NCBI GenBank assembly: GCA_051362555.1
Contig: CM120641.1
Coordinates: forward strand, 46,382,401-46,446,400
DNA length: 64,000 nt
Reading direction: 5' to 3'
Origin: Lingula anatina
Taxonomy: Eukaryota; Animalia; Brachiopoda
A model generated the notes under the pieces. The model saw nothing but the letters and a program-made list of their open reading frames with translations. It made no database searches and was not told the origin of the DNA. Below are positions 2,697 through 37,000 of this stretch, piece after piece. Position 1 is the first letter of the stretch; every line of letters begins with the position of its first letter. Both the position numbers and the translations under genes were made by a program.

Positions 2697-2750
<54 letters not shown>

Positions 2751-11025: not shown

Positions 11026-11771
11026 GTAAATTTTGTACGTGATGAAGGAAACTGCAGAAGCAGTTCACTGTACAGTTTAATGGAGAGCGAAATATTTTTT
11101 GTATTTATAATTCCACGTATTTGTCCATCAATTATCCTCTTTTTATTTTTACAACGAAATAGAATCGTGTAAAACAAGTAACACAAACTATTTAAGATAG
11201 AAAAATGTTGTTATAAAAGAGCTTTAATTAAAATATCTCAACTGGCAAGTTCATATAAGCACAAAGATTGAAAGAACAGATGGTATCTCAATTAAATCTA
11301 GGTTAGTATGTAAAATTATAGATACTGTAATAATGTAGGGTCTGAGGACAGAGAAGGGACTAAGTGCTTGGTTTGGGACAGTTGTATTTTACCTCAACCC
11401 TTATACCAGCAATATAAACAGGATCAGGTGGAGAGCATTGTAAGACGGGAACAACTCTATGGGGAATGTTACATAATTGATTGAGAATGTGAGATACCAT
11501 TAAAAGTGGAGACCAGTAATGTAAAATCTATTCAAGAATAAGTAAGTGCTAACAACACTTCAGTGCCTTTTGGGTCAGTGAACCAGATATGAACCCCCAG
11601 CTGCATAATGGTTTCCCTTATCACTCTCTTTTTATCAGTGCATAATATTGCAGTCAACACCTTATCGTAATAATCTTAATTATAATTATGATTAATTCAT
11701 TAATGTATGTTATTGTTATATGGTATTTTATAAGTAAAATACAATGCATGTCCTGTCATTAGTTGCAGACA

Positions 11772-14700
11772 ATGTCTAGTCGGGTGTGCCAGCACTGCGG
11801 TTGCAGTGAGATCGACACGGATGCTGCCCGCGGTGACGCCGTGTGCACCAGCTGTGGGTCTGTACTGGAGGACCAGATCATCGTCTCGGAGGTCCAGTTC
11901 CAGGAAAACTCAATAGGTGGCACCTCTGTCATTGGGCAGTATGTGTCTGCGGAAGGTGAGGTGATGTTTATGGTCGTTCACTTCCAAGAAATATCAAACC
12001 CTTGCGAAACCAGTTTCATCAGTGAATGAGTTTCCCCAACTCTAACCAGTAATGTTATTGTCATTATGCACTATTTGGAGTTGGTTCCTTGCATTTTAAG
12101 GTGCTATTGTTAATTATATGTTTAATGATAAATTTATGCATTTTTTTGCACTGTTATGTTGTAATGGAGAATAATAAAACTAGTAGGATGAAAGCTACTT
12201 ATACCTGAATAAGTTAGAGTGACTGAACCAAGCAATTGTTATAAGAATAAAGGTTTTAACATTTCAATATGATTATTATTACTGTTATTATTATTTAGGG
12301 AACAAGTCTCACAGCATGGGCAGTGGTTTCCATCATGGTTTTGGAAAGGAATCCCGGGCTGTCACTTTGCAAAATGGTGAGGTTTAAATACTTGGAAAGC
12401 ATGCATAAGTTCATATATATATAAGGTGGTCTTTGTGTCAAGTGTAGAAGAGATAAGATGTTCAATAGACCATTTCAAAGTGTCTTCCAAATGGTTTTAT
12501 ATATGTATTTGTTTGTTTGTTTGTTTTTTTATTGTCTGTTTATTGGTCCCCATCTAAAGACATGACGCATTACACACAGACATGTTTAGATATTTATTCA
12601 TTCTATGTCATATTGATGATAACCCTTTTTTTCCACAGGAAAAAGAAATATCCAACAGCTGGCCTCACAGTTGAAGCTGAATCAACATTGTATAGAAATA
12701 GGTTACAACTTCTTCAAAATGGCTGTTAGTAAGCGCCTGACAAGGGGAAGAAAAACCAAACACGTGATAGCAGCCTGTTTATATTTAGTTTGCAGAACAG
12801 AAGGCACACCACGTATCCTTTTTTTCTGTGAATTTGATAATCATGTTCAGCTGGCTTGGTTCAGCTCTGTAACTCTAATCAAGGTGGTACCTGAAATCCC
12901 AAGGGAGGTAAGAGTGAGGATTTAACAGATCAATAAGTTCCAAGCCCAGCTGTGAACTCTGTGATCCTGTTAATTAGGCTACCTGGCTGTAATACAGTAC
13001 TTTATCCTCCAATTCTTCAATGTGTATGGTGAAATCCTTACTAGTATGCATATCAACCGTATTATCATGTCAAACCACAGATCTTGCAAATCAATAGTCA
13101 AAATGACATCCATCGAGTGCATTTTATTTACCGGACGATTTGGATAAAAATTCCTTAACTTGCATTAGATATGCTGTTGGATTTTAGTGATATACTCCAA
13201 GTCAATGTGTACACACTGGGAAAGACGTACCTCCACTTGTCCAGAGAACTGTGTATAAATGCACCAGCTATTGGTGAGTAAACATTTGTTTATATAGGCA
13301 ACTGGGGAAATATAATTTATTATTTATTTATTTATTTATTTTTCTCAAAACTTAGCAAGTTTTAATATTTATCACTGGGATAAAATTTATCTTGGTCTAA
13401 TACCAAAATTTATTTAGTCAGGTTTATGTTTTGAAATAAATCAATGATAGATATGCTGAAAAAAATTTTCTCCTTTTCTCTGTATCCAATTTATAATTTA
13501 CAAATTTTCTAAAATTTACTGTGCTTTAGTGGGCATTACCACATTTCTAGTATATAAGAATAATATGCTATGTTTAGAACTTAAAAATTTCCAAATCTGA
13601 TATACAAGTAGGCATGTAATGATGAGATTTTAGAATTTCTTATGAGGTAAATAGAATTCAATAGACAATTTTGTGTTGTTGAGTGCTTTAAGTGGAGTTG
13701 ATATTGGGCAAGACAAGAAAGTGATTGAAATAACTTTAGAAACATTACGTGCATTACATTTCACCAAAATTTGCCCCGTGCTGAAAATATTGACGCCCGT
13801 GAAGTTGAGTAGATAAATTACTGGAAAAGCTGTAATTATTCTAGTTATTTCTGAATAATTCATTTGATATATATAATTTATCTGGAGTCCACCTTTTTAA
13901 AAGTGTGATATAATTTCATTTGAAACAAAACTGCCAAAGTCAACATTCACTGTATTTATTTGACTTTCAATGAATTAAATATACAGATATTGTCAGATCA
14001 TTAGAAAAGTAAAGCCCAACTTTGAAAGTAATTGACAGTATCACATGATCCACATATTTTGCCCACTTGCACCATCTTGGCTTCTACATGAAGAATAAAA
14101 GTCCTAACGAAACCACCTGTGCATAGGACCTTGCTAATAAGAACTATCAATTCATTGTAATCAAGATAACAATTAAAATAAACTGGTGAAGATTTGAAAA
14201 GATTCCATGTGTGTCTATGTAGAATGGTACTATTTTATGCAATTTAAGAATACTAGAGATATTTCCTTCAGTAATACTAGCTGTATAATAAATACATTGA
14301 TAACATATTTACTAGTTAACAATTATTTACTTCTAATTTATTAATTGTAAATATCTATTTGAAAAGGAATTATATTGAACATACAAAATGTATATCACAA
14401 TATGTATATAAATATTACCACCTATATACAAGAAAGCTCCTCATATTCTACATGCCTCAACCTTTGCCACTACTCCTTACGTCAAGCAGTTACAGCTCTA
14501 AATTTAATAGCTGTTGAAGAAATAAACAGAAGAAAATTATAAATAAATATCATGCATCCTGCATGCAAGTGTACAAAAAAAGATGAGGTAACCAGTCTAT
14601 TGACAACCCTTGATATGTGCCCATTTTAAGTACAATTTCACTGTTATAACCACGCCTATGTAGGAGGGACAAGATACTATACATGCTTAAAAATGAAATT

Positions 14701-17700
14701 CAAGTTGGAATGAAGCTGTGCTGGGTATGTTCAAAACAATCGTACGTTTACTACATTTTACTACATTATGCAACATTTGTACAGTTTGACGACATTTGCA
14801 TTGTGTACACGTGTGAGAACTGCTATCCAAGGTCTACCCATAGAAAACTTCTACCCGTAGAAAATTATCTCAGGAATTTGTCCCCCCTGAACCCCTGTTC
14901 CATTTGTGCTGTCAGAGGAGCACTGGTACTGAAAAGTCACCTTTCCCACCTGCACCTCCGCCATTCCCTCCTGTCCAAAATACGACAGTTCCGCCCCGTC
15001 CAGGATTGCACTGGCAGTGTAGAAAGCATCAGGCTCCACCTGGATGGGATTCTCAAACATCACGGGAAATGTATTACTGGAGCCATCTGAGAAGAACTTG
15101 GTGGTCTTTTCTCCCAGAATTATCCCGTTTTTCTTGAGCTCAATTTTAACCCTGTACTCAGCAGATCCATTGCTAGAACCGTATAAGCCAAACCCTGCGA
15201 CAAAGATTCTCTTGTCTATAGAAAATTGTATGCTATCACAACGCCCTCTATATCTCCACTGGTTACTGCGATAAGCAGATGACTGAAAACGATGGCATCT
15301 GAAGGGTCTTAGTCCAACACGCGACTTAACAGGAAAAGGAAGCTGAGGTTTGTGTGTTGCTGTATACCACAGAAAAATATTATTAGTCTCTTTAAGAGTG
15401 AGTATCCCTGACTGAGCAGGGCCATTAGCGAAGTCTTCCAACTTCATGGATGGTATTCTTACCAAGTACAGAGCTGAGCCAAGGACTTTTCTCTTGTTTT
15501 GATTGGTCGGTTCCAAGTCTCTCCTAACGCACTCAGCCTCAGCCCATCTGCATGTTGCCTCAAAGATGGATGTCTCCTGTGAATGTAAGGTCTCCCTCAA
15601 GAGGACAGTTTTCAGAGTTTCATGGTCGATCTCAGCGAAACTTTCAGCTTTCAGAGCCTCTTCAGCCTGTGCATCAATCACCTCCCAGCATCTCAGCATC
15701 AGCTCGTGTTCCTCAAACAGCCGACTCTGGCTCAACAGGACACAGGCGTTCTTGGCGTTAAGGCTGGTCTCTAGGAACTGGACACAAGCCTTGGCGAGAT
15801 AGGGTACTATGTACTTCTTGGCCACATACAGGGTGGCTAACACTGTGTCTGGTTCCAAGTCTATGGCGTCATAGTATAGGTACCTGAAATAATACACGAA
15901 GTTTTGTTTTGAAGACACATTTAGAAAAATGCCTTACTTTAAAACCAATTATATACTTTTCTTTCATTACTGTTAATTGATTTATTTGAAAGTTGTTTTA
16001 ATTAAATGAATTTTGTTGCATTCTTAAATTACTTTTAAAGAAATGAGTTTTTCAGTGAGTAGCAACATCATGATAAAATTTTTTTTCAATGTCCAAAAAC
16101 TCCAGTTCAAACAGTAAGCACAAAGTAGTATATCTATAAATTGTGAAAATAGCCAGTATAAGTGCATACATGCCATGATCAGGCATTACTGAACTAGGTC
16201 TTCAGTATAAGACCCTGTTCATTTAGATGATTCTAACCAAAATGAAGACAATTGAAACAATAGCCCAACTTACTTGAGTAAATTGAGAAATGCAGCAGGC
16301 TCCACATCAGGTATTGCTATCTCTGTCTTCCCATCAGCCAGTCCACCATAGAACATAGCAAAGAATACAGAGCTCCCTGTAGCCAGGTTATATTTATGAG
16401 CAGGTATTCGTTGTACACCACCAGTCGACTTCTGTCCCACAATGAACACTACGTCTGCCATGAGGTCATTATTACACATGGCGGCATTGCGTTCCTTAAC
16501 ACTGGTGTAGTTGGACTGCCAGTTGAGTTCATTTGTACTGTGCATGGATTTGGGTCTGGGAGCCGGAAGACAAGGTCTGGGCTGGCGGCTGATGCCCATG
16601 GTCTGACTCACTCCTGCCTTGTTTTCAGGGACCTCTTGGTTGACCTCATCATCATCAATATACTGCATCCTATCAGATATAACAAATATGTCTGGATTAC
16701 TCTTAGACATCTTTCTATTGGACATCAGAGTGAGAAATTTTGATACTAGGTGTGAGAAAATATAGACTAGCTCTCACAGTTCAGAATCATATGACTGGAT
16801 TTATTTATAACATTTATCTCCCTCACCCTGTCATGGTTTTGGACATTGATAAACAGCCTGGAGGTTTCTGCCTGCTATCCCAGATCATAGTTTGTTTGAT
16901 TACGAAGATTATCATAAATTCCTCAATATTATGTCGACTGATATGTTATTCTCATACTTCTCCATACACTTGATAGTTATATAGGGACTGAATTTTCATT
17001 CCATGCCCCATGTGCTAGTTGTAAATAAATCATCAATGATATGTTTCATATGTTACAACTTATCAGATAGTGTGTATAAATTAGTCCTTTGGGAGATGAA
17101 ATGTTATCAGACCAACCCTTCTGCATCACAAATTGCTACCTTGATTCCAGGTCAGCTTGATTAATAACACTAGCCCCTTTCTCTGTGCTTTTGTCATTGC
17201 TATGAAAAGTGTTTGTAACATTATAAGTTATGATACAAACCAGTGATGTACTTACTTGAGTTGTTTAAATCTACTTCTGATCATTTTAGAATTAAACCTT
17301 GTTCTCTTCACACAGTAATTACAACCACACATCATTGTTTGTCATAGAGCAACACTTACAGCTTTAATCAAGTCCAATTCCAACTAGCTACAGGTAATCA
17401 GATACTTAGATTTTCCAAATTTAGACATACCCTTCTGGGGCACTCACCTCTAGAAAATGTATCAAATTGTAACTTAATTAGGTCAACTTTATAACATGGA
17501 TCTTACCTGCTTTAGATCATTTGTTTGGGTATAGAAGGGGGCAGGTGAATGAATTTAAATTCATAGAATATAAATTACCTGGTATGGGAGGCATGCATTG
17601 ACTCGTCAGTATACATAATTGGTTTTTTTTAAGACTTCTGTTCAGTGTTCAGTTGACAGCCATCTTCTTTCATCCATGTAGTATCCCACAATGCACTATT

Positions 17701-20700
17701 TCCAATTAGCATAATGTGAGATTGATGGCGCCATCTATCAGGCTAGAGCAAAACTAATCAATGCCTGTTTTGCTTGTGTTTATAAATTTTCTTATTTGAC
17801 TTTATTGCTTAATATTTATCAAATACTTCTCTTAATTACATTTCTTCAATTAATTTTATGAAATAAAAAAGTGGAGGAAAAACAGGAGTGAATGTGTGTA
17901 TAAACTGAATAAATAACTTAAATTTTTACAATCAATTTTTAAAATCTTTTTCCCTTTATGGTCTAAGTTTCTATTTTATATTTTCCATTTTAAGTTTTAT
18001 ATAAATTTTATACAATATTGTCTTGTTTGTTTTGTAGATCCATGCCTACTCATTCAAAGATTCTCCCACAAGCTGGACTTTGAAGAGAAGACACATGATG
18101 TATCGATGACAGCACTGAGAATTGTACAGAGAATGAAAAGAGATTGGATGGCAACTGGCAGACGACCATCTGGACTGTGCGGGGCAGGTAGGAAGCATGA
18201 TAATATGATAAATGAAAATGATGAGAGTGAAATATGAATTATGAAAAACGAATTATGAATCAAAAACTTCTTTTCTTTTTCGGTATCTTGTTGATTTCAT
18301 AAGTCAAAAATAGATTACAGTGTATATGTTGGAAGTCAGACATGTTTTAAGAAGAGAATACTCTAAGTAACGTCAATCTCATAACTTATTATTATTTTTT
18401 TTTTTTTTGGATTTCAGCTCTGTTTGTTGCCTGCAGAATTCATGAATGTTACCGCACAATGAAGGAGATAATCAAAGTAGTCAAAGTTTGTGAAGCTACG
18501 TTAAGGAAGAGGTGAGGCTAGTTCAAATTTCAGAATGATGCTTGGGCAAAACTTGGCTGCTGAACTAGTCAGAGATGAAAAAATAGTGTTGTTCTACTAA
18601 TTTGAATGTATTTGTTGCTTTTTTATGCATATTGCTTCTTCTGCTTTGTTTTATTCTTTTTTGCCAGTTAACAGAGTTTTTTAAAGTGTCCTCTTTGATA
18701 ATCATGAATTATCCTTATTATTTTGTATCAAAAACAGTATCACAAAATTAATAAATGTCCAAGGTGTGAGAAGTCAGATTGTCTTTGACAAACAATGTAC
18801 ACTGATTGCACAATGCAGATGATATCATTATACTGTGTTCTTTCCCACATTCCAGATTAACAGAGTTTGAAGACACACCCACTAGTCAACTGACCATAGA
18901 TGAATTCCAGAGGATAGACCTGGAGGAGGAGCAGGACCCACCTTCTTTTAAGAAAAGTCGCAGAAAGGCCAAGGAGCAAGCATCAGTAAGTACCTAGCTA
19001 GGGTTTCAAAGAGCACGGTTAGTTTTCTTCAGCTTCTTTATTTTTATGGTGTCCTTGGTGCCAAATTGTAATGTGCACAAGTGTGATTTGAAAGTGAAGA
19101 AATTGACGTGGATTAAGAAGGGAAATTACATGATGTTTTTGTCATTATCTTCAAAATATTTGCCAATATTGCATCAGAAGGTATTTGTAATGCCTTTATT
19201 GTACACATAAAAAAACTATATAAGTATTGTTAAATTAATGACATTTTTGCCTTCAGCTGGAGGAAAGTGGCAAGTTGTCAGAGGTTGTCAGTGAAGTGAG
19301 CAGCATTCAGAAAGAAATAGAACAAGCACTGGAAGCTAGAATGAAGAAAAGATGGGGAAAAGAGATGGGTAAGATACCATTATCATTCTTATGAGAAATG
19401 ATAGTTTAAAAAGCATTCCTTTACTCCTACAATAGTTTTTACTAACTAAATTCACGGAGAACTTCTTATCCTGGGTTAATGGTCAAGAATTTCATTTAAA
19501 ACTTAAAAAACCATTTTAGCTCATTTTTCAAAATGTAGGAATGTGGTTATCACTTAGATATTTATGCATTTTGGAGCATTTACTCAAAGGATATTACCTT
19601 GTTTACCACTTTTTGAACCTGGAGATCAAGCTTCCAAAAAGAAATTATCTTTTTTTAATGAAATTTTTTGTTTTAGCCAAAGCAGAAGCAATGCAGAATT
19701 CGCTTGTAGAATCATCAAAGGACCAAGATTGCTTAGCAGAAGACGAGGATCTCATTCCATGTGGTTCAATAATCAATGACGAAACAATTGAAGCTGTACT
19801 CAACGACCCCACAATTACCTCAGATAATGGAATCTCAGAACTGGAGGGCGTCACGTCCTCAGAACCTCTTACAGATTTAAGTGAGGACACAACAGACAGC
19901 ACTGATACTGATGTACATAATTTAGAAAAACAGGAAATGGATAGCTTATTGATGCCACCGCCCACGTATTTGACGCCCGGACAGAAACTGGCCTCTTTAC
20001 GACCCACCGCAGCTAGTTTAGGTTTGATGGAAAGTGTTCAGGAGTGTTTGAAGGAGGAGGATTCTGTGGAGAAAGAAGAAGAAGAGGGTAAGTTGCACTT
20101 GGAGCCAATATTCAGTTTCATGAAAGAATTTCATACAGAGAATTTGTCCTCATTTTTCAAACAATATTTGGTCTACTTCAGTTCAAGATAAAGATAAATT
20201 CAAAGTAGCCTGTGTAAATAAATTTTACAGTATTAGTCTGAAACATCAGCCTTTTATTCAATTGGACTATTGTTGATTATCTAAGGTAAAATTTTAAAAG
20301 TTCAGACCAATCTTGGTAGAAAGGACCCTGTTCTCGTCACACTGTGAGAATATGCCATGCTCTTCATCATCATCATTACAAACATCTAAGTGATTGGCCA
20401 GAGAATATAGAATTAAACTTCCATTGTTCTCATGACACTTTTTAATTGTAGCACTGTCAGTTATGTCACGATCAAGTAAATCACTGGTTTACAAAGGAGT
20501 GCATTCCAGCTTACCTGTTAAGTAGCCAGAAGTGTGATTATTTCAATGTTAGCTGTGAAATTATGATTCTGCAGCTTTGTTTTGGCATATTAAGATCCTG
20601 TTTATATCTTGTTATGATAATAATAATCATTACTTTATTTTTGTTCTTCAGTAGAAGGAGAACAAGAAGATGGTGAGTTGGACCTCGAAGGCATAGATGA

Positions 20701-21704
20701 TGACGAATTGGAAAAGGTATGTTTCGGTTACTGTTTTGATAAAGTTGAATTTATTGTGCTCAGTGAACAGAAATGTTCAAGAAAAAGAGAGCAAACTTAA
20801 AATCACTGTTATTTCTCTGTTTTATTGAATTTCTTTGTTTTTGTTATTTCAATATTTTTGAGTAACCCTCATAATCATTTTCCTTTCAGTTTATCCTTAA
20901 CGAGGAGGAAGTGAAAAGGAAGACTGAAATGTGGATAAAACTGAATGCAGTATATATACAGGAGCAAAAAGGTGAAATTTCTTTCACAATTTAGAAGAAT
21001 CCTTCTATAAGTACAGTGATTAAAGCAGACAGTAAGAATATAATTTTTTGGATCGATTTATTTAAGACCAAACCTTAGACAAATATTGGTAATTTTTATT
21101 TTTAAATTGTGTTGTTTTTTTGTTGTGTGTCCTGGTATGAAGAGTATATGCCATATCACCTCATAAAGTTACTAAAACTCTCTTTTCTCACATTCCTACA
21201 GAGAAAGAAGAAAAAGAAGCAAGAGAAAAAGAATTAGGAATAACAAAGCCTGAACCCAAAAAGGTAATCATTCTTTTTGAAGAAAAGTTTTCACTGAAGA
21301 AAATATCTTAAGTAAGATTATCATTATGATGTATGGCTCCTACATATAGATATGATTGTATGTTCTACTTTTCTACTATCTTGTTTAAGATTTTGTAATA
21401 CATAAATTATATAAAACTGTCATATTTTTATGATAGAAAAAACAACACAAGAAGAAGAAGCAACAATACCCAGCCAACAGTGCAGAGGAAGCTATACAGA
21501 AAATGCTTCATGAGAAGAAATTTTCAAACAAAATCAACTATGAAGTTCTCAAAGATCTGAACAGGGTGTCTGAAAGCAAGCAGGTTATAGTGGCGGAGCC
21601 CGTCCTTGGTGCCAGTACCCCAGTGAAGTCTGGGATAGGGACCCCAGATAGTAAAAGGTAGAAGTGGCTGGCTCCCTTTCTTCCTTCTTTTTATCAATTT
21701 TCCT

Positions 21705-23635: not shown

Positions 23636-25480
23636 ACATGGTTTAGCTTATATTGGACACTGATGCTGGAAAAAGCAGGATGAAATATCATTTTTGACTT
23701 TATAAAATTAGATAGCTTGTGAAACTACATTTTGGCAGGTAACTGTATTGCACAAACTATGAATGAATATTTGTTGTTTTTTGAAACTTAGATCATTGCA
23801 AGAGTATTATCGTTTATTTCCAAGTGAAATGTTAATTGATGACTGATGTAATGAGAACAATCTGTATCGTAGAGTACTTTTTAAAAACCCTGTACTGTGA
23901 TGTGTAATTTGAAAAAGTGGTGTCATACGGAGACATTTTTGTGTATAACAGCAGCAGAAAGTTACCTCTATAGTCTTTTGCTCAAAATGAAACTTAAAAC
24001 ATGAGTAGTATGCTTAAATTTTACTGGTAACATTTTCCTTCTTTTTAGAGAAAATTTCATATTGACACTTTTTTTGTGGTTTAGGAGTAGCAAAAGGGCC
24101 AACAAACATTTGGGCAGTCACATTGTATGAATTGTTAAGTGTAATTGGTTAGTCAAAAGTGCACATATCTGTTAAGTGTCTTTATTACTTTGAGCAAGGG
24201 TTAACGTATTTAAAGTTGATTTGGTACGTGTGTTTTGTTTTAAGATGGAATTTTACTAGGTTTATCAGCAAAGTTTGTTTTTTATTTTGGGAATAATTTT
24301 TAAATTGTCAGTTTTAGAACTTAATCCATCCGTAGTCTGCATGACCAAGAATCTTTGAAAAAAAGTAGTTATTTATAAAAAAGATTTCTTTTCATTATTT
24401 TACACTTAAAAATTTAAAATGGTAGATCTATAATTTTCTAATTTTCAGTATTCCAAGCAAATTGATTGCATTTTGGGTGTTTTTTTAGAAAAAGATTTTG
24501 GGAACGAAAGTAAATCTTGCTTTTTTGTTTTGCATGAAGAGCATGGGAAACATATGGGCAAATAAGTAGATACTTTTTCCTTTTTAAGTGGGTTCTTTTT
24601 AAGTTTAAAAAGTTCAAGCCTATAACAATATTTGATGTTTGTGTCCCTTAGAAATATCCAGTTCTGTACATATTTCATGTGTAGCAAAGTTAATATTGTA
24701 ATATTTATTAATTTTATACATATCTTCTTATCATAAATATGTAAATTATCTAGTGCAGAAGTGTATGTGTATAACAGTTGTATTGCACCATGTGAATAAA
24801 CATGTCCAACCACTTATTAGATTTTTCGCAAATGATGGAAATCATGAATACTAAGTTCTGGACCAAAGCCAGAATATAAACAATTAAATATTTAGGTGGG
24901 AACGAACTTGAAAAAAATATGAAATTGTCAGCACCCATCGAGAGTACAAAATGCAATACTTAATTAGAATTTGGGGGGGGCAAACCACTTTATCACTGGT
25001 TTCTAACGTTTTGTAAAGCCTGTCTGGACCCTATTTGTTCTGAGTTTAAAATTCATACTTTAAGTGGATTATTTGTAGCGCCTTTGGTACTCAAATATGT
25101 AGACACTCACTGAAGGAAAAGTAAGAGAAATCTGATATAATAGACTAGAAGGAAAAAAGGCTTACGCTATTATAAGGTAAAATGGAAACCTTTTTCAAAA
25201 ATCACTGTTATAAGGAACATGGCAGCAAAGCTGTCAAATGTAGACAAAATGCAGAAAATGGGTCATTTTGTCAATTTTGATACAATAATAATTAATGCGT
25301 GTTCAATCAACACTAAAATTTAATCATGCACAGCAGAAGTGAACTAAGGCTAGGCAAAATAAACTTTAAAAAAATCACGTTTGCTTCTACATTTTATTCA
25401 GCAATTTTTAGCTGGCATTTTTAGCTTCATTCAGTTTTTTTGGCTGTCAAAAACTAAGTGGCAGTATTTTCATGATAAAG

Positions 25481-26674
25481 TTACAGCTTGAAACAATAAA
25501 CATCTGCCTTTCCACTAGCATTTTGGTCAATCCAGCCCTTATGTCCAGTTGTCAGGGATCTGCTACTCCCACAACCAGGTCTAGGGTAACGGATAGGGAG
25601 GTAAATTTTCCCATCGGCTGCCCAACCAAATGCACAGACATCCAGTCCATCTTCCCATGCAGCTTGCAGTTGGGCTGGTGTTGCGATTTTGGCACCTCGT
25701 TCAATGCATGCCTGTTGAGCTTGATTAAAGGATAGTTTGTATCCACCTTCAGATGAACGAACATGGAAGACTGGAACTTAAAAGAATAATTCTTGGTTAG
25801 TATTAGTGATAATTTCAAGATGTGTAAAAAGTATTCCTAATGTATAAACAAATAGATGGCCATGACTCTAATATCTACATATGTTGACATTTGATCAGGC
25901 ATATTTTCCCTGTTTATTGTCCTGTTAGTGTCCTGCTAATGTGGACACACATTGTGAAGTGTACCGACATGTGCAGGTTGAATTGATAAAATCAAATTTT
26001 AATTGAGTTTACTGCATCAATCACACACACACAAAAAAAAGAGTCAAGCGCAGAGTTTTTAAATGCTGAAGGGTAGCATTTTAAAAGGACAAAAATGATA
26101 TGTTAAATACATTTTGATACAATTTTTAGAATACCTGAACATTTCAATTGGCACAAAGAAAAGTGTCAAAAGAGATCAAAACTAACCCCCTTTTTTCACT
26201 TAATAATATATATGCCCTTGATGAGTCCAATGCTGTAAAAATACCTACTGTGCTGTCTTCTTGCATTTTCTTCCATCAACGTCTTCAAAGCCCGCAGTTG
26301 TTTCTGGAGGTTTCGGACCCCTTTTTGGGTGTAACCCTTGAGGTCATCAATACTGTGCTTCATATCTTTAAGCTCTTGGATTTCTACAATGCCAGTAACA
26401 CCAGTTACCTGTAACCAGGGAGAAAAGTGGCAAATTATGTTTATGTTCCATTTATTTATTTTTTTATACTTTGTTATATTTATTGTCAGTTATCTAATGG
26501 TAGGTTAGGGTTTTTGGCCTTTGAATCTATTTTTCACTAGACTAGGAAAAAATTATATATGACTGGTAAGTTCTGTACACAATGACTTACCTGCTCAGCA
26601 CCGCAAGTGAAATAGAAATTTGCACTTGATAGGAAGGCAGTCACGACAGTGCAAAAGCAAAATTTCCACAGCAT
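25481..26674 (-). CDS. Secreted protein: signal peptide + coiled coil + Link (Xlink) module, about 179 aa
   Basis: Exon 1 26674-26591 MLWKFCFCTVVTAFLSSANFYFTCGAEQ (donor GTAAGT). Exon 2 26408-26249 VTGVTGIVEIQELKDMKHSIDDLKGYTQKGVRNLQKQLRALKTLMEENARRQH (donor GTAGGT, phase 1). Exon 3 25776-25481 (I)PVFHVRSSEGGYKLSFNQAQQACIERGAKIATPAQLQAAWEDGLDVCAFGWAADGKIYLPIRYPRPGCGSSRSLTTGHKGWIDQNASGKADVYCFKL*. All four Link cysteines and the YKLxF, ATPxQLxAAW, CxxGW, PRPGC and DVYCF motifs are present. TATAAAG at 26757-26751; AATAAA at 25398-25393. Confidence 0.9.
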
Positions 26675-26750
26675 CCTGAAGAGTTGAGTCCGTCTGCTTA
26701 TTCTGTGATGGCAAGTCGTGTCTGTTTAACAGTAATTATTCGGTGCATGT

Positions 26751-26757
26751 CTTTATA
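26751..26757 (-). promoter_or_regulatory. TATA box of the Link-module gene
   Basis: TATAAAG on the minus strand about 80 nt upstream of the ATG at 26674. Confidence 0.5.
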
Positions 26758-27151
26758 AGCATAACATGTCTAGGGGAAGTTATACCTGGCACTGGTAGAC
26801 TGAAACCAATTTACCACAAGAACTTATTGTCATTAAGTGGGTCCCCTCTGTAATAATCCATGCAAATAAATTAGCTGAACTTGGAAATTGGATGTAGTTA
26901 ATTAGGTGTCATTTAACTACTTGCTTAATAACAAAAAAGAACAGATACTGATACATAAAGTAGGTGTAGCACTTATAGGGATCTCTCTCAGTCTGTTTAA
27001 ATTTTGTGTTAATGCACCTTTCTTTACTGCAGCAAGTGACCATGCAGCCAATGTAAAAACAAATTGTGGTCTTATCATTTATTTATTTCTCAGAACTCAA
27101 ATCAAGATAATCAAATCAAAAAAAAAGACTATGATCAAAGACTTGCCATCT

Positions 27152-27510
27152 AGATTGGATCATCTATTATTGACATTTCAGTCTTAAAGTGTGCAACCCA
27201 AAGCTTTCTAAGTCTTTGGCCAAAAATAATTATGTATTTACATCCACTGAAAATTTAAGGAAAGCGGCTTTGATATCAAGATTGGATCATTTATTATTGA
27301 CATTTCAATCTAAAAGTGTGCAACCCAAAGTATTCATATTCTCTAGCCCAAAATAATTATGTGGACACAACCACTGAGATCTTAAGGAAATCAGCTTTGA
27401 CATCAAGATTGTGTCATTTATTATTGACATATCTTTTTAAAATGGACCCAAAGCATGCAACCCAAAGCATTCAGTGGTAGCACCATCTGATTGTATCATT
27501 TATTATTACT
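27152..27510. repeat. Diverged 127-bp tandem repeat (about 2.5 copies plus a fragment)
   Basis: The unit start AGATTG(GA/TG)TCAT(C/T)TATTATTGACAT recurs at 27152, 27279 and 27406 (period 127), followed by TGCAACCCAAAG in each unit. A partial fourth start lies at about 27490. Confidence 0.8.
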
Positions 27511-27987: not shown

Positions 27988-30584
27988 TAAGAAATGTGTC
28001 CATTTTCAAGTCTCTACAGCATATTCCAAGTTTTGGGGTTCAGTAGGCTGTAGTCTCTATGTTCCAATGGTCTGAAAAATTTGAATAAAAGAACTGTTTC
28101 GCATGTTTTTTCCTTATCATAATACTTTAAAATAAGAATGACTTTGAAGATGTTCTTTGTTATTGATTTTTGTTTTAAATATTTTTCTTTTTAATTTTTG
28201 TTTTATGTATTTTTATTCATTTATTTATTTATTTTATTTTTGTTTTAACATTAAGTAAGTGAGTAAGAGTATTGCATAAGGCCCCTGCTATTTCGCCATT
28301 GATGACCATTATGCAGGATTTGAACGAACATCATCGTTAATGAATTGTTGTGTGATGAAACGTCCTGACAAAAGAGCACCCCGTCGTCATGTGATTGATA
28401 GTAAATTGGTTATTTAGAGTAAACTCCTGCATCCCGGCTAGAAGTTAATGAAGTCCTGATGATATTGCGCATTTAAATTTCAATTAAAAAATTTAATTTT
28501 TAATTTTTAGATTCAAACTAAAATAGCCCACGCTCTGATCTCATAAATAAGTAAAATACTTGTTGAGCGCAATGTAAAGATAATTTGCTGCAAAAAAATA
28601 TTGTTTTAAGACAGTCAAACACACAAAACATTTCGTCAAAGTAAGTGTCATTTTATTATAATCGCCATAAAAAAGGACAATGTCTCGATCTTAATTAAAT
28701 TGTTTCCTTTGAAAGGCAGACGCTAAGGCTCGAAATCTGGTTCCGGGATGTCGCAAGTGGCCTCTCCGCACGTCGTCATGTCACCGCTAACACACATGGG
28801 TTGGCAATCACAGTCAAGTCTGAAAGTATGAATATATTTAGCGAAAATAAATATGAATGACGGCGAACGCAGAATCAATCTAAGTGCAAAATTGAGTGTC
28901 AAAGCTGATAATAATGATAATGGTGAATCGGTGATGATGATGAGGTGAAAAAGGCAATTAGATCGGGGTTAATTTTTGGTTAACATTGATTACAAAATTT
29001 TGTGTCAAGAATAGATCTTACAGTTTTAACATAATGTATAAAAACTACTATTGAGTTCAAACGATTCAGAGCGTTTCAACGTTTTGACCTTCAATATGTA
29101 TATCCGTTTGAATGGAGAAGAGCCAGAATTCAAGTTATGGCGATAAGATCAACCCCTGTTTATTTCTACCTACTTGCAGACGGCTTGATCTCCACACTTG
29201 CAGTCAAAGAGACAGGCGAATTTGGTTTCTTCGGCACACTGTGGTACTGGATTGCATTCTGAAAGATGAGGTAGTAATACCAAAACTTTGTAGTAATACC
29301 AAATGATACCAAATAAAGGTATAGATTATAATATCAAATATGATTTTATGTTGTTAAAATATTTACCTTTTTCTGTGCAGTGCGATGTTGTTTTTACCTT
29401 TTTGTCATTTATTCATATTTTGTCGTGAAAATAAAAGTAGAGGGTTGAACGTGGCGTGAGCCGTACACCCTACATTTCGAGGTTCTCCACTTTTCTCCCT
29501 ACGTACGCTAATCTTCGAACAGCAAAGGAAGTGCAGTTTTGCCGATGTCAAAAGGATGGTCCCATACCATACTCGCCGCGAAGTGAATCACAAAATAACC
29601 ATAACGCTTCCACTGATAGCAGGTAATAACTACACGAAAGAGGAATCAAATAAGTAAAAGGATAGGGAGTCGTTGAGAGTAAGTTATTAACTTTACAGCA
29701 TATGGTTATTTTGTGCAGGTAATTATATCGTAGATATAATTCCCTATTTTATGAGAACATTAAAATGTTTGACAGCACGTTTAGCAATATAGAGACAGAT
29801 AGCACAGACTAATCCCTCTACCCGGAATGAAATAAAGACAACAGTGATTTTGAAAATTACTCCTCAAACATACCTTGTAGTTTTCCGTCAATGCACCCAT
29901 ATGATGCATCTGTGATATTGTCATCTTGTGTCTTCTTACCCACGGCGCCCCCCAACAACACCACGAACAACAGCGCAAACATCATCGTGCCACAACCCTG
30001 GTGATTTGAAAAACAACGAATGGTGTGCTTCTTTTAGTGAAGATGCACTGAAATGAAAAATATATATAGTTGGTTAACTGGTCTGGGTTTACCCTGTCTT
30101 TTTCTTCTGTTTTCCCCGTTATATAAAAAACTCATCCAAGAAATGTTAAAATGAATGCCTCTATATATTTAGGCCTTACATTTGTTATACTGACTCAGTA
30201 TTGTCATATGCTCTGTATTTATGTTCATAAATACAAAATCACCCACATTTATGACTTAATTGACAATAATTGAGTGGAAATTGACAATGAAATAATTTCC
30301 TCGTCCTAGGTTGTGGGATTTTCCGGAGCTAACGTCATACAGTCAGCTGTTAAGTTTCCGACCGGAATTGCATTTTACAGTATATTCGACTCACGTGGAT
30401 CTAGGCGTCATGAATTTCAAATATTTCAGTTACTGGAAGCCGCAGAGGCATACTGGTGATAGGAACTACCGTTTCTAAGATATTTTAAACTCAAGTCTTC
30501 TTTGGTGCAATTAATTAACATTTTCCCGCAATCTTTCAGTAATTTATAGGCCTGTTTTGAATAATTAGATCCCATACTTATATA

Positions 30585-32245
30585 CAGACTTGACATTTAA
30601 TATGGAATATTTTTTCAAAATCATAATTCATCAGTTTTTTTCCTATTTTGCCGACTGATAAATGAAAATAAGGATCAAAATCGTGTTTTAATAACTTCTG
30701 ATAAACTGTTCCATGTCATTGTGACATCAGTTCTTTAATTGACTTCGCCAATGAAGCAAACAAAAATACATTGCCAATTTTAAGTCATACGACAACCATT
30801 GAAAGCGATATTTTGGATCTCCATATTTTCCAAATTATCGTCTTTAAAAGAGTTACACGACCCACAAAGGACCTTCATGTCAGTGTCTAGTCACAGTAAC
30901 GGTCGCCGCTATGCCTGACCTTATCTTTCTGCTACCAGAGCTTTCAAGAGGCAAGGCATTTCTTGGGATAGTTTTTTTAGAATTTAATCTGGAATAAAAT
31001 TCCAGGCAACGGTTAAAGCTTGTCCAATTTGGTTCAGTTTTGTTGTAGGACATGCAGGCCGTTGATTTGGCGACTATTGACCTAACCACATATTGTTAAA
31101 GTGGTTCAAATATGGCGATTTTGATGACCAAGGTAGCTGCTTATTCCCTTGGTTCTATAAGTTATCTGCTATTAAAAGTGCTCTGTGTGAACCAGCTATC
31201 TGATCGTGCAACCTAAAACTGTTCCTAAGGTGCCCCTATCAAATGATAGTCAAGTGGTTCCCAGATTATTCCTTTATTTGATCTGGTTCAGGTTTTAATC
31301 GATGACTTCCATTGGTGTTTTGGCACCAATGTGGTATCAACTCCAAATATTGACGCTGTCAGTGGCCCTAGTCACTTCAGAAGGGGCACACATCTTGTCG
31401 TAGGCCTCTTGAAGATGTCCGTAAACTCTTTTTTGACCACTTGAGCGGTACAGGTGAAATCTGACCTCAATAAAGAAAACAACGCGGTTTCAGTGTTCTA
31501 CCCAGAAACGGTCATGGTCCCCAATTCATTAGAGAAACAGACTACGCTGTTTTGCTGTTTACAGTGGCCTCCTCAGAGGTGGGCTGGTATCCTAATCTGC
31601 TTAAACCAGTTTGGTGTTCGCTAAGAGCCTTGAAAAACGCGTTTTGGTGACAATTTGCCCCTCATTTAAAACGGACTGGGTGGTTTTGGTTTAATTGCAG
31701 CAGCATATCCTGAAGGACATTGAGTCCTGTATTCTTGTGGTAAGATATTGATACATTGGACGTGGTGTCTGTGTTGGTACATAAGCCTGGGCATTACTCT
31801 GTGAAACTGTGCGGACCGTTCCTTTTGGGGCAATAATCTGTCTGGCAATGTCTGTCTTTTTCGCACCATTCTGGCACAGTTTAACGATTTTGAAAAACAG
31901 CGCTTAACTCATTTTACGTACTGCAAAACCGACCGCTTGCATGCAAAATTTCAAATTCTTCTATGCAATGGTTGCCGACATATGGATACTTTTTTGACAG
32001 AACCATGCCTCTCCAAAGCCAAGCTTTGACCAGCTCAAAGGAGCACTACCCAATTAAATCAATGCATATTTAACAATGCAGCAGTGCATCAGACTTGGTA
32101 ATCAGTTAATTGGTAGAGACACACCTTTCTTCATACTTCCCCAGTCAGATATCTTATATGAGATCTGCGTTTTTTCAATAAAGAACGCATTTTTACCTAG
32201 GTATACCTTTAAAACTGAAATATTCCATATTAAATGTCAAGTCTG
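30585..32245 (-). mobile_element. Tc1-family (Tc1/mariner) DNA transposon, 1661 bp, full length, inactive
   Basis: Perfect 28-bp TIRs CAGACTTGACATTTAATATGGAATATTT at 30585-30612 and 32218-32245, with TA on both flanks (30583-30584, 32246-32247) and an internal degenerate transposase. Confidence 0.9.
30880..31942 (-). pseudogene. Degenerate Tc1-type transposase
   Basis: Minus-strand translation across stops and frameshifts gives HTH-like GAKKTDIARQ; H*NRVVFFIEVRFHLYRSSGQKRVY (compare WxxVLFSDESRF); SVNIWS...TPMEVID*NLN; LHDQIAGSHRA (compare QDNARPH); LPWSSKSPYLNHFNNMW (compare WPxxSPDLNPIExxW); AWNFIP...EMPCLLKALV; terminal TRH*. Confidence 0.85.
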
Positions 32246-33948
32246 TATTTACTCTCCTGTTTCTAAGTCCTCTACTGAGTATGTAGAATTTAATCTTAAA
32301 AGACAAGATAATTATAGTGGCAATGACGTGGATGCTAGTAAAACTATCTCTAACGCCTTCTAGAAAAACACGCTAACACTCCCCTTTTGATTTTGCGTAT
32401 GAACCCTGTCATCGGATTTAGTGGTCTATCACTCTCCGGTGATAAATCCACAAATGAAAAATCGTGAACAAAATTGAAGTTAAAACCAAGTGAATTCTAA
32501 AAAAGAAAAAGACTATGCCATTCAGTCAATGACTTTATTTACATCCTTCTAACCAAGTGATAAAGCGGTACCCTTTGATTTCAGGGGATTCTGAATTAGC
32601 ATACAAAATTTTAAGTATGATAGATACAAAATTTTAATAGCGCACCTGTGGTCAGAGAGTAGTAAAGTGGAGAGAAAGGCGCAAATGTCTTAGCGGAGAG
32701 CATTGATTGCGTTTTCTTTGCAGCTTCTCTAACGCAATGTCAACTGGCAGTACTTATATCAAGCACTTCAAGCGAAACGATACTCTGCTCGTATGGTAAC
32801 CTTAGCTGCAGTTTTCTGTGTAGCAGGATTAGGCATGTTTTATGTAGCAAACGCCTATGGCAAAGAATAACAACATTAAGTATCATGACAGTTGTAACCT
32901 CCTTAGTTAATCAAAATTAACTTAAATTGAATTTACTTTTCTAATTTGTTCTGACCCCAGGCGAAGACTAAGTGGCACCCTATGAGCGTCGCTTCATTAA
33001 CTAGGCTGGCGGAGTTTCGTCGGTTATCTATTTAAATTACCCTGAAATTAGATTTTTCGTCCCAAACTATGAGTTGCATTGATTGAAAATCTGACGTCTG
33101 AAAAATTGATGCGCGTACATCATAGGCCTACGTGTGAATAAAATAATACCCTTATTCATGCTACGTTATAAAGGTAAGCCCTCTATAGCAATGACGGGAA
33201 ATCAATAGTTTGAAAATGCCTGGCAGATTGGTTTAAGATATTTCATTTTCGTCAAAGGTAGTTGAAAATTAGATGAACAGGTCCTGTTGCGATTATACTG
33301 ACTGTTTGTTGGTTTTGCTGTCGTTTAACGCCACCACTTACCAGAATTCTTTTTCATGTTTAGCTGCAACGAATACTACAATTAGATGGGCATTGTAATT
33401 ATTGTGAATACTTTAAAATGGCGATTTTGAAATTTCATGTGAAATAAGAGATATTCCTGTTTCCTTCCTCGTACAGCTAGACACACGTATTAGGCTTGTC
33501 CGTAGTCTATAATGATGTAATACGATTTCGGAGCTATCTTGCCTGACAAACTTATCCTCGAAAAGTGCGCGTTATAGGCACAATAGGCCTACATATGGTT
33601 CAGAATTTTCTGGAATTTCTTTCTTTTTTGTTCCGTTAAGAACGTTAAGAGTGGGCCAATGCCCCCTTTTGGAATATCTCATTGGCAGTCAGTCTCTTTT
33701 TACTAAATTCATAAGAAAACTTCCCTTGGAGGCTGTTGGCCAGCTGTGGGACGTCAAATCAACTGCAAAACATACCCGACGCTTTTGCTTCTTTCTTTAA
33801 AAACTCAGCCAATTTGCATCGACTTTAATGAACAAGCGAAAAATGTTAAGTTCCAGTTGTCTCATTCAAAAAGGAAATAGGGCCACGTTTTCAATATGTT
33901 TTCATCTCCCCAGCCCCTGCAGTTAAAACCATCAAATAAGCACACTCA

Positions 33949-33964
33949 TGCCACCTAGCGGTCA
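33949..33964. promoter_or_regulatory. CTCF-like motif near the TRIM9/67 start codon
   Basis: TGCCACCTAGCGGTCA matches the CTCF core consensus, about 75 nt before the ATG at 34040. Confidence 0.45.
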
Positions 33965-34039
33965 CCGCGAGATTCAACAATCCAAACAAAAACGAGGCTG
34001 TTAATAGTGGAGCGTTCAGAGGGTGCTTGGGGAGCAAAG

Positions 34040-37000
34040 ATGGATGGGGAACTGAAGTGTTCTGTGTGCTGTCGTAACTTCACCAAGCCAGTCTTGCTTC
34101 CTTGCTCACATTCTCTTTGTTTAGGGTGTGCTCTGAGTATCCAAGCTCCAGTTCAGCAATTTGTCCCGGCGCCGGCCAGTTCCGAGGAGGGAGCGACAAC
34201 ATCAACGACGGTTGGATTACCTGAGTACGACTTCCCTGATATTGACAAAGTGTCGATACTCAGCGAAACGGACAGTGGAGTCGTGTGTAATAGCCGACCA
34301 AATAGTTATGTCGGAACCCCAAATGTCAGTAACATCATCACACAAGCAATACAGGGGAGTTCTATCGGTATCTGTTGTCCAGCGTGTAAAAAAACAGTTT
34401 ACTTGGATGAAAATGGTGCGAACAGTTTACCAAAAAACAAAGTTCTGGAGGTTATAGTTGAGAAATACACGAGCGGAAAAAGTATGGTGGTTCGATGTCA
34501 GTTGTGCGAAAAGGACCCCAAAGAGGCCTCGGTGATGTGCGAGCAGTGCGAGGTGTTTTACTGTGACAGTTGTCGCGAGCACTGTCACCCGGCTAGGGGT
34601 CCCCTGGCCAAACATAACCTGGTAGCCCCCAGTGCGGGCAAAGACACCATGAGGGCCAAAAATAAAAGCATAAGCATCAAAGACGTCAAATGTTCAGATC
34701 ACGGGGATGAGAATATTAGCATGTACTGTTTGATTTGTAAAGTTCCCCTGTGCTGTCTTTGTATGCAGGACGGCCAGCATGTCAACCACGATGTCCAAGC
34801 ACTAGGGGCTATATGTAAAGCTCAAAAGGTAAGTACATAGTTATAAATATATATATTCTCAATTCAAGTTATTACACAAGGCACTCGCTCACTTCTGGAA
34901 TACAGAACCTTTTGCTGCCTGCCCTGGAATTCCAGCAGTGAGAGCATTTATTTTATGTCACGGCTTGAAGTGTTAACCAGTGATTGGATTAGCCAGGAAA
35001 TGGCAGGTGAAATGAGTGGAGTGTGTATGGCTTGGTACAAGTTAGTCAGCTATTGCCTAGTTAGTCTGTCACTATCCCCAGCCCTCTGCCCCAAGTCAAG
35101 TCAACCTGGATGGGCTCCATTCATTTACGTACGTACGCTCCACCTGAGTACCCGACCCAGCAGGCGCCATACTGACGGACAACTTTTATGGCTTTTCCCA
35201 ATTCAAAGCGTAGTTTTATTATGCCCTGACTCATTCAAACTTCATACCTTTGTTGATCTTAACCAGTGATGCCATTGACCAGGCTGATGGCTATCACAGA
35301 GAAAACTGTGCACGGGTCCTAGAGAAATCCACCCTGCTGTGATATTATAATACTTTGTGTAATTATTTCACCTATGGATTTGTGAATGTTATTGTATTGT
35401 GTTGTACCCGTCCGCGGCAGATGTATTGATGAAGGGGGTCTTCTGTTTGTATGTGTATGAAACTGAGCATCTGGAGTGTTGAAAGTTATTCATAATTTTT
35501 CCGGCTCTGTGCTCCTTGTTGCTTTTGTCAACTATTGTCGAAGAAAATGTTTAAGCCTCTCCTTTATTTGTTCACTGATTGTAATGAACCTGGTGAATAA
35601 TAAGAGGTACATATTGGTATAAGTGAGTAACAGCAGAGAGCAGGATACTACCCCAGCCAGCAGTAAACCCCATATATTTCAAGTTGTCTTAAATTGAGTG
35701 TGAAAGGTCCTTCATAAATTCACAACATGTAGTCACTAAAATGTCTGGGCCCTGGAGAGATTTTTCCTAGCATTATCAATCACGTAAAGAACTTAAGACC
35801 AGTTCATTTGGTGATTTATAAAAGCAACTGATGACAGTGATTTAAGTATACATAGTTTTAAGAAGGATCAGGTTAATTAAAATTTTAAAACACCAGCTGC
35901 TGTTTTGCTCCAAAACCTTCTTAACAACACATGAAAGAACCTGTTAGTGATTCCCAAGAATATATTATTGGTCTAGCATAGCATGTTTAATAGTTCCTAT
36001 GGCTATTATTGATGTCCTGCTGCCGATAAAATGGCCATGAATATGTCAATAATATTCAAGATTATGGTAGATCTCAAGATTTATGACTGTATAGCCTGAG
36101 AACAAGTCAAGAGACATACACGGTTATATTTCATCTGTGTTTGAAAAGATTTATTAGAAAACCGTAACTTTTTTCTGCATAATACCCCTAATGACATAAG
36201 TGTACTTTGAAGATAGGTTGATATTCTGTTAATTGTCACATCTGATTAAAGGTTTAATATTTGTCTGATAGGGCTTCTGCAGTAATTTCCAGCCCTTTGT
36301 TTAAGATTTCTATTTTCTTTTGATTTAAAAGCTTATCGTATTCTGCATGAAATATGAATTAGTCATAATGGGTTTTTGGAGACATTAATGCCTGCGAGTG
36401 CCCTGGATCAGCGCCTTATAAATTAAGATGAATTAAGATTACAGGTGTGAATTGGGTTATCTCAGTGGCAAGTGTTGTGAGGTGTTTTAAGATGCAGATC
36501 GAATGATGATAATCAGATGTTACATTTTTATAGAAATTATTCAGCTCAAGACTCAAATCTTTGCTGTGTTTAAGAATTCAAAACTGTCTCCACTGTATTA
36601 TTACTTGGGTATGCAGTATATGTCCACAGGCATGGCTGTGAAAAGAACTATGGCTAATATGGGACACAGAGGAAATCTCCAAACAAATTACCAGAGAGTT
36701 ATCTCATTTGAACTATCTCATTTTGCCATATGCTGAATACAGCGACTGCGCTCTATGAATTTTTTGATCCCTTGTGAGCTTTGTCGCCTTGTGATTGACA
36801 CTTCATTATCCACTCGATCAAAGATGATCAAAGCCTTTGTCTTCTGTCCCCGCCGCCATTCACTCAGAAGATGAGATGTACACCGAGATAGCGCTGATGA
36901 AAGTCTTCGTGCTATATTCCCTCAGTCTCTGGAGACCTCACAATCACAACTGTTCAAATGAGGGAAACACAAATGACAATCAGACCTTCGCTCTCATATC

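Follow-up and report, generated by a model that had tools for sequence, protein, structure and literature searches.

Gene content of the window

The window (the whole stretch of DNA analysed, 64,000 nucleotides) contains a small three-exon gene for a Link-module protein on its minus strand, situated between BRF1 and a RING/B-box TRIM gene. BRF1 extends over positions 11763-21658 of the plus strand, with the zinc ribbon and first TFIIB repeat at 11763-12922, the second repeat at 17917 and the BRF1 domain at 21437; nesting of the Link gene within BRF1 was considered and rejected, as the last BRF1 domain match ends near 21.7 kb. A BTB-BACK-PHR gene (14851-16773, minus strand) lies antisense within a BRF1 intron, an arrangement shared by human BTBD6 and BRF1 that may represent a nested pair conserved across bilaterians. 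The other genes are ABC transporter exons (1316-3742, plus strand), a single-ORF BTB-BACK-Kelch gene (7088-8848, minus strand) and the TRIM gene itself (33959-34840 and 56300-56656, plus strand, with a probable coiled-coil exon ~22 kb downstream). Two repeats were also observed: a direct repeat at 27148-27473 (offset 127 nt, 79% identity over 199 nt), located ~400-700 nt upstream of the TATA-like hexamer described below, and a 34-nt inverted repeat (30579-30612 and 32218-32251, 97% identical, ~1.67 kb end to end) that could mark the ends of a non-autonomous DNA transposon.

The coding part of exon 1 (26591..26674) comprises 84 nt from the ATG at 26674 and encodes residues 1-28, a predicted signal peptide. 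It is separated by intron 1 (26409..26590; 182 nt, GT-AG, phase 0) from exon 2 (26249..26408; 160 nt), which encodes residues 29-81 and the coiled-coil neck, while intron 2 (25777..26248; 472 nt, GT-AG, phase 1) precedes the coding part of exon 3 (25481..25776; 296 nt including the TAA stop), in which residues 82-179 form a complete four-cysteine Link module. The spliced frame is 540 nt long and encodes 179 aa with no internal stops, the GC content is 0.44-0.47 in exons versus 0.29-0.31 in introns, and branch-like CTAAC/CTAAT motifs are found 24-30 nt ahead of the intron 2 acceptor. Both exon junctions are backed by end-to-end alignment with four 182-aa Lingula RefSeq paralogues, and the printed alignment of the model to paralogue P0001 is broken once, by a gap of 3 aa close to where exon 2 begins. 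For intron 2, only the exon end at 26249 combined with an acceptor at 25776 or 25770 fits; the latter, also in frame, would remove 2 aa, and the RefSeq proteins use 25776. Exon ends at 26250 or 26246, each tried with four acceptors, gave introns that were not GT-AG or broke the frame.

The three-exon minus-strand gene of the original prediction is confirmed at its stated coordinates, the full-length paralogues supporting the splice model. The prediction had also cited a TATA box and a polyadenylation signal. Both hexamers are present, TATAAA at 26752..26757 (83 nt 5' of the ATG) and the candidate polyadenylation signal AATAAA at 25393..25398 (83 nt 3' of the stop), both on the minus strand, but they prove little alone because they are common in the window (0.84 and 1.44 per kb per strand, respectively). 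A tblastn search of the 64-kb window with the four paralogues as queries found no further Link exon.

Lingula paralogues and earlier annotation

Residues 44-179 are identical at 133 of 136 positions to the Lingula anatina RefSeq protein XP_013398715.1 (HAPLN3-like, 136 aa; UniProt A0A1S3IKE4), retrieved by a profile search. This match identifies the host as a brachiopod, most probably L. anatina itself or a very near relative in the genus, in line with the non-chordate origin originally proposed. Judging from this identity, XP_013398715.1 most likely represents the same gene in another allele. Its model begins at the internal Met44 and so excludes the signal exon and the first heptad, both of which are supplied by the window. 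When longer proteins were searched with exon 3, two of 42 candidates matched, both from Lingula anatina, and the clusters of both contain four RefSeq entries of 182 aa labelled 'aggrecan core protein' (XP_013403430/431 and XP_013396449/450). These share the three-part layout, differ by being 3 aa longer and are 83-85% (three proteins) or 75% (one protein) identical to the 179-aa model. They form two pairs with consecutive accession numbers on two contigs, at 78-96% identity to one another, which suggests tandem copies, as compared with the one copy in our 64 kb; haplotype duplication of a single tandem pair may account for some of them. With the allele and four paralogues already in RefSeq and UniProt, the gene cannot be called hidden. 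The names aggrecan and HAPLN3-like are nevertheless wrong by architecture, because the proteins have neither an Ig domain nor a tandem Link pair.

Link modules outside chordates have been published as well, and an older Link module is not a new idea. A 2025 survey (PMC12383584) records such domains from anthozoans, several bivalves, Owenia, a tardigrade, a sea urchin, bacteria and viruses, citing an ancestral metazoan origin. Its Table S1 includes nine Lingula proteins of 136-282 aa (A0A1S3IKE4 among them) and 13 Owenia rows of 147-333 aa, with no Anneissia, Antedon or Ptychodera rows, and neither Lingula nor brachiopods are mentioned in the main text. Our literature search, which covered titles and the beginnings of abstracts with most subscription journals outside its scope, found no description of a coiled-coil plus Link family, and passages of three background papers (PMC3002383, PMC3581078 and PMC8260672) contain nothing on one. 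The layout of signal peptide, coiled coil and Link module therefore appears to be undescribed.

Predicted signal peptide, coiled-coil neck and Link head

The N-terminus is hydrophobic (best 19-mer Kyte-Doolittle value 1.38, at residue 5), and on this hydropathy exon 1 is predicted to encode a signal peptide; its product is 67-83% identical to the N-termini of the four paralogues. Beyond residue 30 the best 19-mer reaches 0.82 and falls within the Link module, indicating that there is no transmembrane helix. In the neck, hydrophobic positions occur at 41/44/48/51 and, after a stutter near 55-59, at 59/62/66/69/73. None of 300 shuffles scored as high as residues 48-75 on a home-made heptad score, and the AlphaFold2 model of the allele XP_013398715.1 (mean pLDDT 83.6) contains one unbroken helix over residues 45-80, both of which bear out the proposed coiled coil.

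Exon 3 matches Pfam Xlink (PF00193) with 94 bits (gathering cut-off 27; E = 6.7e-27) over model positions 2-92 of 92, and the module's cysteines are Cys105, Cys129, Cys150 and Cys176. In structure comparisons, the allele model aligned best to aggrecan G1 (Z = 15.8; r.m.s.d. 1.9 Å over 99 residues), followed by TSG-6 (Z = 13.5) and LYVE-1 (Z = 13.2); the top four Link chains had Z scores of 12.6-15.8, as compared with ~7 or less for CTLD chains. Model residues 154-167 form a divergent loop with pLDDT <50. The Link domain is basic (pI 8.8). Profile, cysteines and fold all place the protein in the Link superfamily (PF00193), as originally claimed. Xlink was the sole Pfam match of exon 3 at E up to 0.05, with no Lectin_C, and no exon matched an Ig domain or C1q, contrary to the suggested resemblance to C1q-domain proteins. 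The window holds one Link exon for a total of 179 aa, and here and in five RefSeq proteins the stop codon directly follows the Link module, leaving no CUB domain. Consequently, the protein falls outside the lectican, HAPLN, TSG-6, CD44, tetranectin and C1q families.

Groove residues and likely ligand

PMC12155565 names seven hyaluronan (HA) contacts in aggrecan Link-1, three of which are identical here (C199, R217 and G219, with R217 corresponding to Arg147), while R163, D200, Y211 and D223 are changed to Gly93, Ala130, Leu141 and Ser, respectively. Eight key HA residues of TSG-6 are named in PMC11460632; six are alignable and one of these is identical (Tyr12), whereas Tyr78 and Arg81 map into the loop with pLDDT <50. 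Residues kept in our protein are Tyr94, Cys129, Arg147 and Gly149. The position of aggrecan R163 and TSG-6 K11, Gly93 here, is basic in 11/11 vertebrate Link-1 rows and Arg in 8/10 crinoid and 1/9 Lingula rows, and that of Y211 and Y59, Leu141 here, is Tyr in 11/11 vertebrate Link-1, 10/10 crinoid and 2/9 Lingula rows. By alignment, LYVE-1 has Asn at the first and Ile at the second of these positions, yet it binds HA, and so the loss of the two canonical residues here does not exclude HA. LYVE-1 Tyr87 corresponds to Phe131, and Lys105 and Lys108 to Gly149 and Ser152.

Other acidic chains are known Link ligands: Link_TSG6 binds chondroitin 4-sulphate in the HA groove (PMC9579337), and a Ciona Link domain is described in PMC12383584 as binding glycosaminoglycans other than HA. 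The same survey, using blastp with one viral bait, found HA synthase (HAS) among protostomes only in Owenia and reports none in Lingula. Lingula has a glycosaminoglycan-rich shell layer (PMC4595640 supplement and PMC13425148) and, according to the former, 30 CHST3 copies. Residues and context together make a non-HA glycosaminoglycan the most likely ligand. As for a role in the shell, raised in the original prediction, the published shell proteome offers no support: a set of 97 L. anatina shell proteins, for which the PMC13425148 supplement gives Pfam assignments and RefSeq names, includes no Link protein, which makes soft-tissue matrix or body fluid at least as likely a location. The PMC4595640 supplement has no Xlink, aggrecan or PF00193 entries. 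Since such proteomes are shallow, these absences count as weak evidence.

A similar layout in crinoids

A profile built from eight rows gave 133 matches, and the 120 listed include at least 11 named non-vertebrate proteins: four from Lingula, four from Anneissia, two from Antedon and one from Ptychodera. The library of 50% clusters yielded 939 matches at E up to 0.001; long proteins bearing at least two Link stretches predominate among the 150 listed, of which nine were identified (two Antedon, two amphioxus, and one each from a hemichordate, a bivalve, a caecilian, a lungfish and Lingula). The caecilian P0033 and the lungfish P0041 are uncharacterized proteins that differ from the named vertebrate Link families in carrying some ten divergent Link-like repeats. 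Two further proteins have other arrangements: two Link modules behind an Ala/Asp-rich N-terminus in P0224, and a PAN domain ahead of a Link module in P0267.

Proteins of the crinoids Anneissia japonica and Antedon mediterranea, named 'HAPLN-like' and 'aggrecan/brevican-like' in RefSeq, share the hydrophobic N-terminus, coiled coil and C-terminal Link module of the Lingula protein, with 38-45% identity in local alignment, and the layout is accordingly not unique to Lingula. When a protein was taken to pass the heptad test if at most 7 of 300 shuffles scored as high, 11 of 14 passed (4/5 Lingula, 7/7 crinoid and 0/2 unnamed rows). Coiled coils hold little phylogenetic signal, and this likeness of the necks therefore does not establish their homology. 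The crinoid proteins differ in having a Cys-x-Cys between neck and head (7/7 tested) and in keeping the canonical Arg and Tyr, and would be better candidates for HA binding than the Lingula gene. One or two neck-head cysteines are found in two other Lingula lineages and none in the subfamily of this gene. In two Antedon proteins the whole coiled-coil plus Link unit is present twice. The coiled-coil, Cys-x-Cys and Link family is expanded in crinoids (P0006, P0007, P0168, P0171, P0192, P0214, P0022 and P0034) and branches next to the vertebrate HAPLN/lectican modules.

Phylogeny of Link domains

For the tree, we cut 91 Link domains from 40 hand-picked proteins (of 280) and removed 17 divergent caecilian and lungfish repeats, leaving 74 rows and 96 columns. 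The tree is unrooted and its sampling is biased, the rows having been chosen by likeness to Lingula; it lacks cnidarian, Ciona, Owenia, mytilid, TSG-6, CD44, LYVE-1, stabilin and named viral or bacterial rows. The Link domain of the window is sister to that of XP_013398715.1 (support 100/97). A group of 43 rows unites Lingula, crinoids, vertebrate HAPLN/lecticans and four unnamed rows (96/90), within which the Lingula domains lie outside a branch of crinoids and vertebrate HAPLN/lecticans (95/89). Forcing Lingula and vertebrates into a clade was rejected (p-AU = 0.023). Clades of Lingula with crinoids (p-AU = 0.16) and of Lingula with unionid bivalves, a protostome grouping (p-AU = 0.27), were absent from the tree and not rejected. 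With the grouping of Lingula and crinoids neither found nor refuted, convergence may account for the layout that they share. We favour inheritance with many losses, which would fit the tree better than transfer from a vertebrate, and the layout is probably ancient among animals, as opposed to having been acquired from elsewhere.

Discussion

Taken as a whole, the sequence evidence makes it somewhat probable that the gene encodes a secreted protein that forms a small oligomer, with a trimer as our best guess, and cross-links a non-hyaluronan glycosaminoglycan in the extracellular matrix by means of a layout inherited from a bilaterian ancestor and then expanded locally in Lingula. Exon 1 would direct the protein to secretion, and the exon 2 helices of two or three chains would coil together, as in the necks of tetranectin and collectins, gathering the Link heads. 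Each head would weakly hold an acidic polysaccharide in the usual groove, more probably chondroitin, chondroitin sulphate or a heparan-type chain than hyaluronan, and clustering could then provide avidity, doing the job of the tandem Link pairs in HAPLN/lecticans or of receptor clustering in LYVE-1. By analogy, a tetranectin-like oligomer is the likely working form, although the a/d residues of the neck (Val, Ile/Leu) are also compatible with a dimer and coiled coils are common.

Three other functions were weighed against this one. The protein may instead be a soluble pattern-recognition lectin of the collectin type, attaching to acidic polysaccharides of microbes and causing their agglutination or opsonisation, which we consider unlikely: neck and CTLD-fold head are combined as in SP-D and MBP, Lingula shows a lineage-specific expansion (nine entries, with the consecutively numbered paralogues on two contigs) and groove position 93 differs among close paralogues (G, R or H), as in diversifying receptors, but there is no collagen stalk, no Lectin_C match and no immune gene cluster, only a single copy in 64 kb between BRF1 and the TRIM gene. 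That it is a true hyaluronan binder within an unrecognised hyaluronan system of Lingula seems quite improbable. The few identical contacts (3/7 for aggrecan and 1/6 of those alignable for TSG-6) and the failure of PMC12383584 to report a Lingula HAS argue against it, set against the facts that the closest solved structures bind HA, that four groove residues are retained, that PMC12383584 reports HA from mussels as well as HAS-like genes from Owenia, and that Lingula has 17 copies of CEMIP (PMC4595640 supplement), a type of enzyme associated with HA turnover whose number counts against a non-HA ligand. A protein ligand, which would make the oligomer a matrix adaptor and not a glycan binder, is very doubtful; the best-known ligands of tetranectin are proteins (PMC13466976), the groove is degenerate and loop 154-167 is divergent and poorly predicted, yet the Link modules tested so far bind glycosaminoglycans and the surface here is still basic.

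Regarding origin, transfer from a chordate, virus or bacterium, or contamination with chordate DNA, appears extremely unlikely, and the tree speaks against the lateral acquisition entertained in the original prediction. In its favour, the distribution of Link modules among protostomes is patchy, transfer is left as an option for several bivalves and annelids in PMC12383584, and viral and bacterial Link domains do exist, with no named one in our tree. Against transfer or contamination stand the spliceosomal introns, the ordinary animal genes nearby, at least three divergent Lingula Link lineages, a branching order that tracks that of the species, the rejected clade with vertebrates, the presence of Link modules in crinoids and hemichordates and the near identity to a Lingula RefSeq protein. 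Beyond the inheritance that we favour lies a broader proposal, possible but doubtful, in which signal peptide, coiled coil and single Link module would define an unrecognised family from the bilaterian ancestor, present in brachiopods, crinoids and probably Owenia, and the source of the vertebrate HAPLN/lectican Link modules. Multivalency would then have arisen first through a tetranectin-like trimer on chondroitin-type chains, a solution that gave way, once there was hyaluronan to bind, to Link modules duplicated in tandem behind an Ig domain.

With the gene in databases and non-chordate Link modules published, the surprise is small. The result is of use in correcting a cut-short and misnamed RefSeq model and in drawing attention to a small secreted Link family, common to a brachiopod and crinoids, that the 2025 survey left undiscussed. 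These proteins of 160-280 aa lend themselves to a paired comparison of crinoid heads, which keep the canonical Arg and Tyr, and Lingula heads, which do not, and this makes the question of Link ligands before hyaluronan a testable one.

Comparison with known Link and lectin systems

HAPLN1-4 and the lecticans (aggrecan, versican, brevican and neurocan) resemble the Link module most closely in both sequence and fold and are the nearest vertebrate group in the tree. They carry an Ig domain and a tandem Link pair forming one HA groove (for aggrecan, the two modules are described as acting as one groove in PMC12155565), whereas the Lingula protein has one Link module, no Ig domain and a coiled coil. 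TSG-6, CD44 and LYVE-1 resemble it in having a single Link module, and LYVE-1 binding relies on avidity (PMC13297582); the Lingula protein differs from these three by the absence of a CUB domain or transmembrane helix and by changes at most of the named HA contacts.

In layout, the closest counterpart is tetranectin (CLEC3B), in which three exons likewise encode signal, helix and CTLD-fold head and which, according to PMC13466976, forms a homotrimer via the helix. Profile and structure searches agree with the tetranectin- or collectin-like layout of the original prediction: the family profile matched the SP-D neck and CRD at E = 0.003-0.005; Foldseek placed the neck and CRD of SP-D, MBP, SP-A and tetranectin behind the Link entries with weak E values of 0.02-0.07; and the nearest ESM Atlas clusters were those of CLEC11A (score 0.77, a lead only) and perlucin, all <0.9. 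Tetranectin and the collectins have a calcium-binding CTLD head where the Lingula protein has a Link head, making it an analogue in layout and not a member. Among protostomes, the mytilid XLINK1 and XLINK2 (PMC12383584) are also secreted with a single C-terminal Link module but are 590-1356 aa long, and the secreted Owenia proteins of the same survey, likewise with a single C-terminal Link module, are similar in both size (147-333 aa) and domain position.
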